Shown here piece after piece: positions 1-12,000 of a stretch of DNA of 64,000 nucleotides. The position numbers were made by a program. Numbering within the stretch: position 1 is the first letter of the stretch; each line of letters begins with the position of its first letter. The DNA comes from Waddliaceae bacterium (lineage in GTDB: Bacteria > Chlamydiota > Chlamydiia > Chlamydiales > SLFE01). The stretch lies in assembly GCA_963783885.1 (NCBI GenBank), contig CAWAPJ010000008.1:1-64000 (forward strand). Direction: 5' to 3'.

Positions 1-3000
1 CCGAATCAGGGGGTCTTCCCCTATCTTCCATACAGCTCCCTCACGAGCTAAAGCTTATGAGGTTCGTGTCACACCACGGTACGACCCCTTTTCGGCCCCT
101 TTTGTTAAACATATGGCCAAATGATTTTGACTCTTTTGTGTGAAGCATTTTTCCAAAATTTCTGAACATCTTGTAATAAGTGAACATATGCATCTAAATT
201 GCATGGGTTTAAATGAGGTAATTCATCATGAATAATTGCAATAGAATTACTCTCTAGCCAATTCAAGTCGCATAAACAGTCATATAAAGCATCCCAGTTA
301 TATCCAAAATATGATGGAAATTTTAAATTTTTAGAATAAAATTTCATTAATTGATTTTTTTCGTTAATTTCAACAGGTACGTTGATAATTAAATCATAAT
401 TTTCATACTTATTATATTCTTTATTTTTCATATCTCTTATCTCACTTTAATAAATGATTGGTAATGATCGGGGGTATAATAAATTTCATCACATTCACCA
501 TAAATAATTCGTTGAGGACCAGGTCCTTTAATACCTGGTGTTGGATGCACGAATTCACGATAATAACTTTCAGTTTTTATCGGTAATAAATTTTCTCTAT
601 TACGGAAAATCGCTCCATCATTTCTATGAGAAAATTTGATACCTTTATCAATTCTTTTAATCGTAGAATTCAGATCATTCCATCCATATAATGCCTGATC
701 TTTTCCAACTTTAATTTCACTCCATACCATGGGAATTTCTTCCGCTGCAACACTTATACTGCTAATTTTACTTGCTTGAATTATAGACGATGCTCCCGAC
801 GTACCTACAACACTTAACAAATCATTTGTGATGGATGCACTTTGCGGTGACATTCCTGCTGTTTGCAGAAGATGTTCAGTTATTGTTGCTGTTTCTCTTC
901 CTGTGATCGCAGTGTTCATGCCGGCAACAAATTGATCAAGGCCATGAGCAAACACGGGCCATCCAACAGGAGCTGCAAGTCCTCCTGAACAGAAAATTGC
1001 CGAACCTCCGGCACTTGCCTCGGCAGCACCTATAAAGGCTTGCAGAGATCCCTGTACCCGAGGATTAGACAAAACATCTATAGAATTGTTGATTAAGGAC
1101 TTAAAATTAAAATCGCGAGCACAGGTAAAGGGATAAACTGCTGCATTTTTCATCCCCTGGAATTGCGCTCGAGGATCATACATGCCTATTTCCTCCGGCG
1201 TTGGGTCCCAATACCCGTCAAAGAGACCATACTCATCGAAATGAGTGAGCGGATTATTGTGAACATAAGCGTAGAGATTGAACCCGTCGGAGTAGCCTGT
1301 CGGATCGCAAGTGGTCCAGCGCCCAAGTGAGGAATCGTAATAGCGGCGCCCGAAATAAATCCACCCTGTTTCGGGATCAAGCCGCTTGCTGGAAAACTGA
1401 TAGGGAGGGGAGAGCCCTTGCGATTTTTCTACTTGTCCAAAGGCGCTGTATCTGGCGGCGTGAACGAAATTGCCTGTTTGAGCGTCGACTAGAGCAATGA
1501 CACTTCCCGATTGATCGTGAGTGGGGGCATAAACGACTCCCTCGATCTCCAGAGCGAAGGCCGCTCCGATTTCTGCGCCGAGACCGGCCCAAAGGGCGCG
1601 GAAAGAAGTAAACGCATCGCCTTCAAGACTGCCTACTTCGCAGCTATCCTGATAAAGGAATTTGGTTGTCGATTCAAGGTTCCAATCATCGAAGGTCTTG
1701 CAATATTTCTGCTTGGCGATTCGCCTGTTGGTCGGTAACATCTCGCGAAATCAGGTTTCCTGTTTCGCCATAAGTGATGTTGCTTTGCGACCACTCGGCA
1801 AAATTTTATTCAAGAGTGATTCACAATGCAGGGACCGGCCCCCTTTACGACCCCTTCGCTCCATCTCCATTACAGAAACTTCATCACTACTACGAGTCGT
1901 TCCGCCCCCGTGCCGCACATCGATACTCTCGCTCTTATGGGTCTTCCACTTTGAGCTTCTCTCTTATCATTACGACGACGAGTTCACACGTTCCATATGA
2001 AAGCCTATGTTAAGTTCATGCCACCTCTATGCCGGCCGCCGCTCAAGCAGTACTCAGGTTTCCCTTGAGCTTTAGTCCTGGATGCTGCCGTGATGCTTCC
2101 AGTTTTGACGACTTCTAAGGGCCTTACGACATTTTCATACAGTGGTTCACTTTCGTTCATCTCCTTAACATGCACCTGAAATGGTCATTTCCACTCCTTT
2201 TCCTTAACGCTCACCACGTGCGGCAATTTGCCTTCGCAGCTTAAGGTGGTTTGATTCTGCTCCTAAAAGCCGAATCAGGGGGTCTTCCCCTATCTTCCAT
2301 ACAGCTCCCTCACGAGCTAAAGCTTATGAGGTTCGTGTCACACCACAGCACAGCCCTATCACGGACCTGTTTTCAGGTCTTTAACTCGGTCCTTTTACTT
2401 TTCCTTCTCGACCAAATCTTTAAATACTTGAATCAATTCCAGCATATTGAAAGGGCCACAATAACCTTTAAAAAGGTTATCTTTGATACAACAATAAATC
2501 CAATCCGTGTCAGTTCTATCTATAAATTTTTCAAAAAATTCATGATTATCTAAAATTGTCGATACTCTCGCTCTTGTGGGTCTTCCACTTTGAGCTTCTC
2601 TCTTATCATTGCGACGACGAGTTCACACGTTCCATATGAAAGCCTATGTTAAGTTCATGCCACCTCTATGCCGGCCGCCGCTCAAGCAGTACTCAGGTTT
2701 CCCTTGAGCTTTAGTCCTGGATGCTGCCGTGATGCTTCCAGTTTTGACGACTTCTAAGGGCCTTACGACATTTTCATACAGTGGTTCACTTTCGTTCATC
2801 TCCTTAACATGCACCTGAAATGGTCATTTCCACTCCTTTTCCTTAACGCTCACCACGTGCGGCAATTTGCCTTCGCAGCTTAAGGTGGTTTGATTCTGCT
2901 CCTAAAAGCCGAATCAGGGGGTCTTCCCCTATCTTCCATACAGCTCCCTCACGAGCTAAAGCTTATGAGGTTCGTGTCACACCACGGCACGGCCCCTTCT

Positions 3001-9000: not shown

Positions 9001-12000
9001 CCTTCGCCAAATATATTTCTGGACAAAGTTCGATAACCCATTTGATTGTACTTATACGTTTCGACAAAAGAATTGTCCTGTCCATCACGAATTTCTTTTC
9101 TTATTGGCTGATCAAGAAAATTGTATTTATATAAGATAATTTGCCCCGGCTTGGGCCCTTCTTCGCAAATCATGTTCCCATAAATGTCATAGTTTCTCGT
9201 GATAACACGCCCTAAAGCATCCACTTCCCTGGTCATCTTGCCGAATCGATTGTACTCCCACTCCAGTGTATAGCAATAGTTGTCGTCTGCATCGTAAACC
9301 TCTTGCTTTGCCTGCCACCCCTCCCTAGTGTATTCATTCACTAATCGCTTTATCTGCTTTTCCTCTTCAAGGTCGAGATAAACTTCTCTTATCTCTACAG
9401 GAAACCCGATGCAAGGGGCATCTTTTTTCGGAGTGTAATACTTAATGATTCTATGGGTCATTCCTGTAAAATCATCTTCCATTTCAGAGCAGCCGTCATC
9501 GGCAATTTCTTTGATCAAAGTCGAGTTGTTGTCATATTCCATAAATTTTCTGTGAAGAATATTTCCGCTGTCTGTCACAAATTCCTGTGAACAAAGATCG
9601 GTATTGTTTTTATAGGCAAAAATAGTCGTCGTGTCGCCATCAGCGGAGGTAAGCATATTGTTGAATTTGTCATTTGAATAGGTGTATTCTTTAAAACAGG
9701 TTTCTAAAGAATCTCCGCAGCCGCTGAATCGCCCTGTTAAATCCTCTCGGATAACATTTCCGCGATCGTCATAAGTGTATTGATGCTTAAAAAGAGAACC
9801 TGACCAATCCCGCAGTTCTTTCCAGACAAGCCTCTCTTGACTCCATGCAAACACCTCTTGTTTCAACATACTCTTTTCGCAAACACCATGGATAATGTTT
9901 GTAATTTTTAAATTATCACCGTATACAAAGTTGCGCCGATAGCCCAAAGCGTCTGTAACAATTGTATTTCCCCTATAGAGTTGTCTGTTTTTTTCATCAT
10001 TGATTTTATATTCAAAATGATACTGATCGCGTAAGCGTCATTTAAGCCCATCTGGAAAAATTATTCCAGATTCTTTAGAGATCGAGAGCCCCTTTGCCTT
10101 AGCCCAGCGATCGGGGAGAAGTTCGTACAGCTTGTTTGCGGGGTGATCCATTAAACTGCGCATGACATCTTCAAGATATTCGTGGGGATTAATGCCAAGT
10201 TCACGGCATGTTTGAATAAGGGAATATATGATTCCTGCTGCTTCCCCTCCATTAGCGCTTCCAAAAAAGAGCCAGTTTTTACGACCGATTGCCAAGGGAC
10301 GTATTGCTCGTTCGGCAACATTGTTATCAAGATGGGCAAAGGGTTTTTTGATATAGTTTTTAAGATGAGGAATAAGGTCGCAAAAATACTTCAACGCTGC
10401 CATTAGTTTTGATTTTGGGAGAATTTTATGGTCTTGAAGCTTTTTTTTCGCCTGTTTGATCATTTCGCTGATGATCGGCTCCTCATCTTCCCGCCGTATT
10501 TTTAATCGTTCTTCGGGGGATTTTTCCCAAGCGATTTTTTCATACTTGTAAAGCTCCTGAATTTGGGCTAAAAACCAATCTTTAAACTCTTTATCGCCGC
10601 TTTGGATATCGAAAAATTTACGACGAATGTGCGCCATGCAGGGGCACCAGGTATACTGCTTCATATTCGCAAGCGTTTCATAAGCTCCGTATTTATCGGA
10701 ATGAAGAGTCCCCTTGAAGCCTTTTAAAAGTTCTTTCGCGTTGCAATGCTTGCGGTTTTCGAAAAATTGATAAATCCGATAAGGCGGATCTTTTGTTTTT
10801 CCTCCAGCGAGCGCCCATACATAAGACTCTTTAGTTTTTCCTCTTCCGGGATCCAGCATCTTGACAGGAGTTTCATCCGCAAAAGCATTTTCACTTTCAA
10901 GAATTTTTGTTTTCATTAATGTATACAAGGGTTTTAAGGCGAGACCCGCTTTTACAACCCATGTGCAAAGGTTTTGCCGGCTTATCCTAACATCTTCCCT
11001 TGCGCGCATTTCACTTTGACGGTATAGAGGCAAGTGGTCGGCGTATTTCTTAACCATAATGTCTGCAAGCAGGCTTTCATCCGCAAAACAACGATCTAAT
11101 AATGAACCCGGAAGCGGCGCTATTGAAACTCCATGCTCAGGACGATCCGGAGAAACGTACTTGGGACGAACATACTTTTTAAGGTAATAGCTGGTGGGCT
11201 TGCAAGCAAGCTTATAGGTTACCTCTTCCCCCATTTTTACGAGAGGTTTTCCTGTTTCAGGGCATACTTTCTCCTCTTCGGGAATGTCGACAGGAATAAC
11301 TTCCGTTGGGATATCTTCGGGTAGAGTGATTTTGTCTTTTCCGTTTCTTTTCAGCTTTCGTCTTGTATGGGAAGAAACCGTTTTTTTCTCTTCTTTTTCT
11401 TCTCCTTGAAGATTACCGAAGCCATCGAATTCCAGTTGATTTTCATTCTGGGGGATGATCTTTTCAGAGCGTTTGTCAAATATCTGGCGCTTGAACCATT
11501 CCAGTTGTTCTTTGAAGTAATTGATCTCATTTTTGAGTTCTGAATTTTCTTTCTGAAGTTGTTCTATAGAAGGGTTTTGTATCGCTTTCATAGCCCATAT
11601 TTTACCAAAAAACACTCTCTAAAAAAAGGAAATATTTAAGTTTTTTCGAGAAAAAATCGGGTGCTGATCCGTTTGGGAATAATGCCTTCAAGCATCATGA
11701 AAAAATCCCTCCTGTTCATGGCAATTTTTCCGGAAGCTTTAAGAGGAAAGCGCCCTTTTTCAAGGCGCTTATACCAGATCGCAAGACCGTCATTATCCCA
11801 GTAGAGCACTTTCATTTTATTGCGCTGGCGATTGAGAAAAACAAAGAAAGCACCTGATGTCGGCTCTTCCAAGGATTGCTCTATGATAGCGCATAAACCC
11901 TCGAAACTCTTTCTCATGTTAACCGGCTCGCCGAAGACAAAAATACGAGCATTTCCTGTAATTGTCAGCATAGGTTTCCTAAAAGTTCCAGGCATCGAGC

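Follow-up and report, generated by a model that had tools for sequence, protein, structure and literature searches.

A cassette-separating repeat in a decaying Waddliaceae rhs array probably arose once, around a truncated group II intron, and was then copied

An uncultured Waddliaceae genome (Chlamydiae; G000) carries a decaying rhs polymorphic-toxin array whose cassettes are separated by a 1.2–1.6-kb repeat. We consider it probable that this repeat, which comprises a junction arm, a piece of a group II intron, a second arm and rhs core, arose once and was then copied. The window analysed here is a 64,000-nt stretch of contig C8, and C8 positions are those of the window; all features lie on the minus strand. 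The array has a broken main rhs gene and, behind it, orphan toxin–immunity cassettes, one pairing an unclassified toxin with Imm53 and one pairing a barnase-like toxin with barstar, each of them preceded by the same group II intron fragment from the 5' end. G000 is a MAG of 46 contigs (88.9% complete), in which the array is broken at the contig end.

The main rhs pseudogene (5754..10030; Pfam RHS_repeat, 6.4e-31) reads from 10030 to 5754 and contains an in-frame TAA at 8910–8912. This agrees with the first-pass annotation, which had described a main gene with an in-frame stop followed by orphans with Imm53 and barnase-like/barstar genes; Pfam recovered Imm53, Ribonuclease and Barstar. The 5' end of the gene was removed by an IS66-family element (10031..12282), and the rhs frame is open up to the end of that element at 10030. 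With this cut and the TAA, no intact full-length gene with an N-terminal delivery region is left. The element encodes tnpC (10038–11615), tnpB (11636–11995) and a small ORF (11965–12282), with Pfam matches to DDE_Tnp_IS66 (2e-87) and TnpB_IS66 (4e-29), and the junction sequence places half of a histone-deacetylase gene (12354–12869) on its other side. The RHS/YD repeats of the core appear in the orphans as TEN_YD-shell traces. Translation of the main gene and the orphans revealed the motif PLTHFDEYGL, which resembles the rhs core-end consensus PxxxxDPxGL. A putative, unclassified toxin region of the main gene lies after this motif, and its C-terminal 228 aa had no Pfam match. Main and orphan proteins diverge ~11 residues beyond the motif, and the two orphans diverge from each other ~125 residues beyond it.

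In each case a predicted cognate immunity gene lies directly downstream of the toxin. For the main toxin, this is a Cys_rich_CPCC gene (5488..5769; Pfam, 3.8e-32). In orphan 1, homology to the 3' part of the core (4184..4833) starts at the codon equivalent to main-gene position 7388, and the ORF (3453..4781, 442 aa) comprises the core end, a ~125-aa region common to orphan 2 and a ~118-aa unclassified toxin domain without a Pfam match; its partner is Imm53 (3154..3468; 9.4e-33). In orphan 2, core homology (1144..1793, by alignment to the main core) precedes the barnase-like C-terminus of a 434-aa ORF (437..1741; Ribonuclease, 2.4e-11) and a barstar gene (105..431; 8.4e-20). Alignment to the main core gave 90.3% and 91.5% for the orphan cores over 586 nt, and 89.4% over a further 66 nt, which confirms the homology recorded earlier. 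Both are 5'-truncated, lack a delivery region of their own and lie downstream of the main gene, as orphan cassettes do. Both also carry a ~302-nt frameshifting deletion, for which the main gene and the units of the same-genus sister genome G001 served as the reference for orphan 1. A 164-nt 3' remnant of a second Imm53 gene (2395..2558; 97% to C19:498-660) marks a deletion that took out a whole cassette.

Only four matches to the intron model RF01999 were found in the G000 genome: three at 92.4 bits on C8 (5214–5331, 2813–2930 and 2174–2291), each covering the full model (1–118), and one at 86.4 bits at C19:763-880 (cut-off 36). Intron copy 1 (4891..5383, 493 nt) starts with GTGTG and contains domains I–III and the 5' part of domain IV. 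Copy 2 (2559..2982) is cut after 424 nt and joined to the 164-nt Imm53 remnant, and copy 3 (1851..2343) is identical to copy 1 over the 550 nt compared. Copy 4 comprises the first 74 nt of the intron (1..74) and runs off the contig start (74 to 1), so that the contig begins inside the array, as had been noted. The array probably continues from there into C19:1-1240. GTGTG, which fits the GUGYG consensus, was present at all six intron 5' ends in G000, in line with the earlier statement that each cassette follows the same intron piece. Also borne out was an intron start in C43, where the first ~37–48 nt follow an immunity-like gene after a 1624-aa rhs gene at C43:16960. Besides the 424-nt stub in the window, stubs of ~37 nt occur in C43 and at G001:C3:4529, the latter adjoining an IS66 fragment.

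Comparison with full-length relatives set the limits of the fragment. DNA similarity is 70–82% up to domain IV and stops at window 4888–4891, ~60 nt ahead of the start of the intron ORF in the relatives. The intron-derived part is therefore 493 nt (5383 to 4891) rather than the ~535 nt first proposed, and the next 57 nt are not intron; for a class C intron, a 493-nt pre-ORF part seems long to us. Among 60 of the relatives' 93 rows, GGAGCGAAGGGG is followed in the relatives by the CAAC..GGAGGA..ATG of the intron ORF, and the window's tail beyond the breakpoint is common only to two G001 rows. One full-length relative, in G018:C67, has RVT_1, GIIM and domain V and lies inside an IS3 transposase gene; the closest solved structure to its 413-aa protein is GsI-IIC RT. 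The window copies lack domain V and an ORF, as annotated. RVT_1 was absent from the 88.9%-complete G000 assembly, and positions 1–10000 gave no RF00029 match at E≤1, RF01999 alone matching there at that threshold. The claim that the genome contains no RF00029 match holds above the cut-off of 40 bits, below which two matches do exist (14.2 and 13.9 bits). Given no domain V above the cut-off and no RVT_1, neither splicing nor mobility is possible for the intron piece.

A pre-existing palindromic junction repeat surrounds the intron, a feature missed in the first pass; intron-free copies precede orphan cores in C22 and occur at the G001 array end. The 5' flank of copy 1 (5384..5447) corresponds to the left arm of this repeat up to the insertion point and holds four tandem 11-nt ATAGGGCCGTG units; its nhmmer match (5410–5384) ends at model position 40. 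On the other side, a second, uninterrupted left arm (22 nt + CATTGTG...) with a short spacer (4834..4890; match 4897–4853, model positions 11–56) is joined to the intron at a common GAAGGGG, where the relatives have the intron ORF leader. Unit 2 has the equivalent arm and spacer at 1794..1850 (match 1857–1813). None of the 11 uninterrupted copies used to build the profile came from the C8 locus. The profile matched all five intron 5' flanks in C8 and C19, each match ending exactly at position 40 and adjoining the first intron base (E 0.005 to 1.7), and three unit tails over positions 10/11–54/56 (E 0.006–0.008). These matches are short and individually weak, and the case rests on their consistent end point, which suggests that a genus-specific palindromic repeat marking cassette borders contains the intron in its left arm. 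Uninterrupted repeats lie directly 5' of orphan cores in C22 (42596–42441 and 40701–40593), at the C22 array end (36727–36556), in the C44 rhs array and before an rhs fragment at G001:C3:14192-14286. The intact G001 repeat is predicted to fold as a long hairpin (-35.5 kcal/mol, z = -7.8, 0 of 200 shuffles as good), and the C22 copies fold less strongly (z = -2.0 to -3.0). The repeat was absent from G003–G005, and a scan of 185,579 species, from which the window genome's own records may be left out, found it only in two genomes of the genus.

Within the window, a 1,600-nt unit at 5408–3809 is 98.4% identical to 2368–769, which points to a ~1.6-kb duplicated unit made of the intron piece and the 3' end of the rhs core. 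All long copies, two on C8, one on C19 and those of G001, end at the same base with the same tail. The first-pass annotation had called the pieces identical; this is right for their one common 3' breakpoint, but the copies differ by 0–6 bases in the 424–550 compared, and copy 2 is cut at 424 nt. Because all copies have one identical 3' breakpoint and so few differences, the data argue for one truncation copied along with the core, not for repeated insertion. The special link between intron and cassette that the annotation implied is not supported, and its own caveat, a passive passenger in a duplicated unit, becomes the better reading. On the evidence here, the fragment is quite likely a dead passenger that lengthens the homology between cassettes.

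Intron matches were found in 3 of the 41 genomes searched, G000 included. As first reported, G001 has kept the unit, in three long copies and a stub, whereas no match came from a second genome of the same genus or from the three other family genomes. Between G000 and G001, intron copies are 99.5% identical, compared with 96.4% for a housekeeping flank (77 differences in 2156, a single baseline region). This excess could reflect selection on the fragment. It also fits recent exchange, since neighbouring coding and spacer segments of the array are likewise 97.6–99% identical. The long rhs gene of G001 bears the toxin and Imm53 that are orphan in G000. The last 586 nt of its core are 95.9% identical to the G000 orphan and 91.5% to the G000 main gene, and further upstream its core matches the main gene at 95.9% identity; the comparison shows a toxin swap by recombination in the core. 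The G001 array also contains IS1 and Y2 transposase pieces. Together with the IS66 cut and TAA in the main gene, the frameshifting deletions in the orphans and the intron stubs, these pieces show that the locus is decaying.

We propose the following course. The first layer of the repeat would be the left arm of the genus-specific palindrome at cassette borders, into which an ORF-carrying group II intron may have retrohomed. The last six flank bases would pair with the predicted EBS1 loop: CACGGC occupies a 9-nt hairpin loop in both MFE and centroid folds, and the exon end GCCGTG is its exact complement at three of six sites, with a G-U wobble at two and a first-base mismatch at one. A candidate EBS2 pairing, GGCCCU with AGGGCC/GGGGCC, is a sequence complement alone. 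One deletion, perhaps through microhomology at GAAGGGG, would then have joined domain IV to the second arm at the observed breakpoint, with the loss of domains V and VI as well as the intron ORF. The fourth layer would be the rhs core from one fixed codon onwards. The truncated unit would then have been copied along with the core, whether through segmental duplication, unequal crossing-over or an exchange of cassettes, in the array itself as well as from one sister lineage to the other. Neither an intron-free allele of the exact site nor a full-length parent was present in 41 relatives, 185,579 species genomes or a metagenome set.

It is also conceivable, if unlikely, that the palindromic repeat, either alone or together with the intron piece, has been co-opted as a cassette border that functions like attC, as a recombination site or as portable homology for toxin–immunity capture and exchange. 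An equally doubtful extension is that a common right-hand homology arm arose when the intron homed into borders at different rhs loci. In G000, repeat sites occur only at rhs-type arrays (C8, C19, C22 and C44) apart from one by an unnamed gene at a contig end, and in G001 all five are at rhs-type loci. The repeat adjoins orphan cores starting at three core positions (about 7512, 7388–7396 and 7246 in main-gene coordinates), although adjacent deletions from a fixed repeat end would explain these equally well. The same ~30-nt flank adjoins seven different immunity-position genes, the intron 5' end recurs in the unrelated C43 array, and array segments are more alike between G000 and G001 than the housekeeping flank is. 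However, a third genome of the genus, G002, carries a variant form, with an invariant core of 31 nt, that is scattered over 14 unrelated places, one of them behind a tRNA gene; this looks like an ordinary small mobile or extragenic repeat. The ORFs scanned next to the C8/C19 array were IS66 proteins, the deacetylase fragment, glutamate dehydrogenase and an IS110 transposase, with no recombinase among them, and the arrays are broken in both genomes.

A role for the fragment as RNA is very improbable, whether as half of a trans-splicing intron joining the main rhs message to orphan exons or in serving the orphan ORF as structured leader, promoter or stabiliser. It does run in the same direction as the cassettes and immediately precedes each orphan, with the ORF start ~110 nt downstream; its domain I substructure is intact (92.4 bits), and domain V–VI remnants without RT exist in G001:C4 and G002:C219. 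Yet the arrangement does not suit core-to-toxin joining, as the 5' exon would be the flank of the immunity gene and the core comes after the fragment, not before it. G000 has no domain V, the G001 remnant sits between a transposase fragment and a 451-aa ORF, and the 3-kb locus around it (L017) has no match in G000. Promoter-like sites (21 versus 19.9 ± 4.1 in shuffles) and terminator-like sites (8 versus 8.1 ± 2.9) are no commoner than chance, the fold energy is ordinary (z = -1.0), and copies are cut at 424 nt or ~37 nt. Mis-assembled or chimeric repeat units are less plausible still: the contig does begin inside a repeat copy of a genome in 46 contigs, but the unit recurs with the same breakpoints three times on a 64.8-kb contig of the independent five-contig G001 assembly, and the window copies have different unique flanks and distinct secondary deletions.

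The locus resembles the rhs locus of Salmonella Typhimurium LT2, which has a main gene followed by core-homologous fragments, each with a different toxin and cognate immunity gene, and core recombination that changes which toxin is expressed (PMC3967940); the G000/G001 comparison shows such a swap. Unlike in LT2, the main gene is dead, both orphans carry frameshifts, the cassettes are spaced by a defined repeat of palindromic element and intron fragment that extends homology beyond the core, and the host belongs to an uncultured chlamydial lineage. Zhang et al. 2012 tabulate Tox-Barnase, paired with Imm-Barstar on RHS proteins, and Imm53, paired with Ntox24/Ntox10, and record both in chlamydiae (PMC3482391); in contrast, Imm53 is paired here with a toxin that no Pfam family matches. 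The phrase 'group II intron' occurs nowhere in that text. Group IIC-attC introns insert in integron cassette arrays at a palindromic cassette-border site (PMC3001079). The likeness is an insertion at a palindrome that marks a gene-cassette border; here, though, the intron is a dead 5' fragment, and neither integrase nor attC was found at the array. Compared with introns in other repeats or mobile DNA, the target here appears to be a genus-specific repeat tied to toxin-cassette borders, and the fragment was then amplified within the cassette spacer. Ferat and colleagues are said to have described, in 1994, introns in Rhs-linked mobile DNA of E. coli. In P. putida KT2440, two of nine group II introns are associated with REP elements (table in PMC1525189).

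The only effect of the intron piece is likely to be the ~550 bp of near-identical sequence that it adds to inter-cassette homology, favouring duplication, deletion and reshuffling. Of greater interest is the palindromic repeat at the junctions. It is a long shot that this repeat is a lineage-specific rhs cassette border with an attC-like role, and that the intron homed into the borders of several rhs loci (C8/C19 and C43), making portable homology for cassette linking, duplication and exchange between arrays and strains. If that were true, a retroelement would have helped to build a cassette-shuffling system outside integrons.

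In the window, which lies on contig C8 of an 88.9%-complete genome in 46 contigs, every feature of the rhs/intron array is on the minus strand. The main rhs gene runs from 10030 to 5754 and is interrupted by an in-frame TAA at 8910–8912; its frame is open up to position 10030, where an IS66 element (10031–12282) adjoins it. A Cys_rich_CPCC gene (5488–5769) occupies the immunity position after the main gene, and two orphan cassettes complete the set: orphan 1 pairs Imm53 with a 442-aa ORF whose toxin end is unclassified, and orphan 2 pairs barstar with a 434-aa ORF whose end is barnase-like. 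The group II intron RNA model RF01999 matches once before each orphan (intron copies 1 and 3, 5383→4891 and 2343→1851) and a third time between them (copy 2, 2982→2559); copy 4 starts at 74 and runs off the contig. Positions 1–1240 of contig C19 in the same genome, which hold another intron copy, an Imm53 gene and a relative of the orphan 1 toxin, are probably a continuation of the array. We recovered the RF01999 scores of the first-pass annotation (92.4 bits for each of the three matches in contig C8, which holds the window, and 86.4 bits in C19), its 89–91% identity between orphan and main rhs cores and its Pfam families (Ribonuclease, Barstar, Imm53 and RHS_repeat). The main rhs C terminus and the Imm53-linked toxin matched no Pfam family, even at E ≤ 1.

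The long rhs gene is intact neither in this genome (G000) nor in a sister genome of the same genus (G001), and IS fragments riddle both arrays. Two unrelated truncated genes flank the IS66 element: the rhs gene, cut at its 5′ end, and a histone-deacetylase-family gene of which the N-terminal half remains (12354–12869). The IS thus sits at a site of rearrangement or deletion and did not simply insert. Just beyond the array are a glutamate-dehydrogenase gene (ELFV_dehydrog, 12918–14195) and a complete chlamydia-type 16S-23S-5S rRNA operon (14462–19501). The array end on C19 is rearranged: past the intron copy, positions 1240–1600 hold a reverse-strand 89-aa ORF and a reversed scrap of rhs core of about 54 nt, and an IS110-family transposase follows at 2315–3409.

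The intron piece begins with GTGTG, matches the whole RF01999 model and aligns at 70–82% at the DNA level with the region 5′ of the ORF in many full-length bacterial group II introns. Its domain IV contains a 28-nt word that recurs at over 121 sites across genomes from many phyla. Among the matches listed, likeness to these relatives ends at GGAGCGAAGGGG (window 4891), and the roughly 60 nt that follow in them, where the start codon (ATG) of the intron protein stands behind a CAAC box and a ribosome-binding site, GGAGGA, are absent here. The intron-derived part is therefore 493 nt long (5383→4891) instead of the ~535 nt first annotated, and it does lack an ORF and domains V and VI, as had been stated. 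Genome-wide searches of the assembled G000 for domain V and for reverse transcriptase (RVT_1) revealed no source of the missing parts. No full-length parent was found among 41 relatives, and a 22-nt word from the 5′ end of the intron was found among species genomes only in G001 and not at all in the metagenome set.

One full-length relative, in another genome (G018:C67, ~1850–3690; RF01999 109.5 bits), shares the 28-nt word and has a 413-aa RVT_1+GIIM protein and a domain V (57.5 bits). This reverse transcriptase is En-less, and its nearest solved structure is the GsI-IIC RT. The element interrupts an IS3-family transposase gene with an ALIL frameshift pseudoknot, and its contig may be a contaminant of that bin. 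Domain V–VI remnants with no adjacent reverse transcriptase occur in G001 (1501–1577 of locus C4:99740–102816, 62.2 bits) and in the third genome of the genus, G002 (1501–1572 of a locus on C219, 51.5 bits). One of them sits between 229-aa and 451-aa ORFs, by sequence a putative Mutator-type transposase fragment and a putative Fic-like gene. Intron debris is common in this genus.

The ~30 nt 5′ of each intron copy are alike, and the genes that precede them are unrelated. A search of the genome with this flank identified a motif, AGGGGCCGTGCNGTG then CATTGTGCATAAYT, that is uninterrupted elsewhere. In the rhs array on contig C22 it lies in inverted-repeat elements of ~85–150 bp, directly 5′ of both orphan cores and at the array end; other sites of this junction repeat in G000 are in the rhs array on C44 and, once, on C29 beside a gene without a Pfam match. 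In G001 an intact junction repeat (a long hairpin, z = −7.8) closes the corresponding array just before an rhs fragment, and the other three sites are at rhs-type loci. We searched the G000 genome with a profile of 11 uninterrupted copies that excluded C8 and C19. It matched the 5′ flanks of all five intron copies, in each case ending exactly at profile position 40, next to the first intron base, and the tails of the three long units across positions 10/11–54/56. The matches are weak one by one (E = 0.005–1.7); those to the flanks are telling because they share an end point. The last six flank bases are GCCGTG at three of six sites, with single changes in the rest, and the complement, CACGGC, falls in a 9-nt hairpin loop in both the predicted MFE and centroid folds, which would be the expected place of EBS1. 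About 30 nt upstream of that loop, GGCCCU is complementary to AGGGCC/GGGGCC in the flank and could be a candidate EBS2. No empty-site allele was obtained, and the end of a paralogous immunity gene in G001 (C3:23584) lacks the junction motif. Just upstream of copy 1, at 5397–5440, an 11-nt unit, ATAGGGCCGTG, stands four times in tandem; other copies have two spaced AAGGGGCC units. The junction element has a variable number of subterminal repeats.

Neither trans-splicing nor another RNA role is likely for the piece: the exon geometry is wrong, domain V is missing, no promoter signal was seen, and truncated copies are tolerated. Trans-splicing within G000 is rejected, since no domain V was found in the assembled genome. 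The domain V–VI remnants of G001 and G002 offer no partner, as they lie at unrelated loci with no adjacent reverse transcriptase, and the G001 locus is unmatched in G000; 3′ of that remnant, junction-repeat sequence was sought and showed weak resemblance, which we did not count. Promoter and terminator signals in the fragment were not in excess over shuffled sequences.

Independent retrohoming at each cassette is ruled out by the single 3′ breakpoint, the end base and tail being common to all long copies (in C8, C19 and, three times, G001:C3). Copies 1 and 3 are identical across 550 nt, and other pairs, including those between G000 and G001, differ at 1–6 positions in 424–550 nt. The piece is contained in a 1600-nt repeat (5408–3809 and 2368–769, 98.4% identical) that extends through the rhs core end and a region of ~125 aa common to both orphans. 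The one breakpoint, the near-identical copies and this repeat form a pattern that separate insertions cannot produce. Copy 2 breaks off after 424 nt, where the final 164 nt of an Imm53 gene adjoin it; an entire cassette was therefore lost by deletion. Stubs of ~37 nt are found on contig C43 and, beside an IS66 fragment, at G001:C3:4529; the C43 stub and the G001 tally of three long copies and one stub, with none in the other family genomes, agree with the first-pass annotation. Both window orphans share a frame-breaking core deletion of ~302 nt that the G001 units do not have. We infer that retrohoming brought the intron into the left arm of the junction repeat and that a deletion between GAAGGGG of domain IV and an identical heptamer in a second repeat arm then removed its remainder. 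Fixed once inside the border repeat, the truncated piece was later copied together with the rhs core. The fragment is real, yet it is a dead passenger; its plausible effect is longer homology between cassettes.

Compared with the intron, the junction repeat is the less ordinary element of the array. It is confined to this genus: a scan of 185,579 species genomes found it only in the two other genomes of the genus, it is absent from the other family genomes (G003–G005), and its word had no match in the metagenome set. The G002 variant has a 31-nt invariant core, a GGGCCGGGCCC palindrome then TGCATTCTGCATAACTTTTT, at 14 unrelated sites, such as one that follows a tRNA gene; 13 listed sites have sharp left borders and the 14th is a 3-mismatch variant. 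The G002 form has the look of an unremarkable small repeat, mobile or extragenic. In G000 and G001, orphan cores adjoining the repeat start at three different core positions, which fits recombination between copies of the repeat, or deletions that extend from a fixed repeat end into an adjacent rhs gene. The repeat could conceivably serve as a genuine cassette border.

In its upstream part the long rhs gene of G001 matches the G000 main gene at 95.9% identity. The last 586 nt of its core are 95.9% identical to the G000 orphan against 91.5% to the main gene, and beyond them come the toxin and Imm53 gene of that orphan and the spacer that lies downstream of it in G000. Such a swap is the exchange expected from the main/orphan recombination described in Salmonella (PMC3967940). 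Array segments are 97.6–99.5% identical between the two genomes, against 96.4% for a housekeeping flank that serves as a single baseline region, which hints at recent exchange of array DNA. Two more rhs arrays were seen in G000. One (C22:36000–47496) has two orphans, several paralogous immunity-position genes and no intron, and its long rhs is split into ORFs of 297 aa and 993 aa. The other, of rhs type (C43:11437–19500, including the locus at 15447–18505), has a 1624-aa protein and then a series of short fragments of toxin ends, every one accompanied by an immunity-like paralogue of ~210 aa; these orphans have no core homology.

Barnase/barstar and Imm53 polymorphic toxins are already recorded in chlamydiae, according to an earlier study (PMC3482391). 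A search of openly accessible papers yielded no account of rhs cassettes separated by an intron fragment or by a repeat of this kind. For the intron, the result is sobering: a dead fragment and no new intron–toxin mechanism. Arrays of rhs orphans are a standard example of toxin diversification through recombination; to our knowledge, the origin of the orphan 5′ truncation and the growth of the arrays are poorly documented. Here the history of the spacer is readable, from a palindromic border repeat through intron homing and one microhomology deletion to amplification, and it gives a concrete, testable route, by repeat-mediated deletion and unequal crossing-over, through which orphans could form and cassettes be reshuffled in a lineage of intracellular bacteria.
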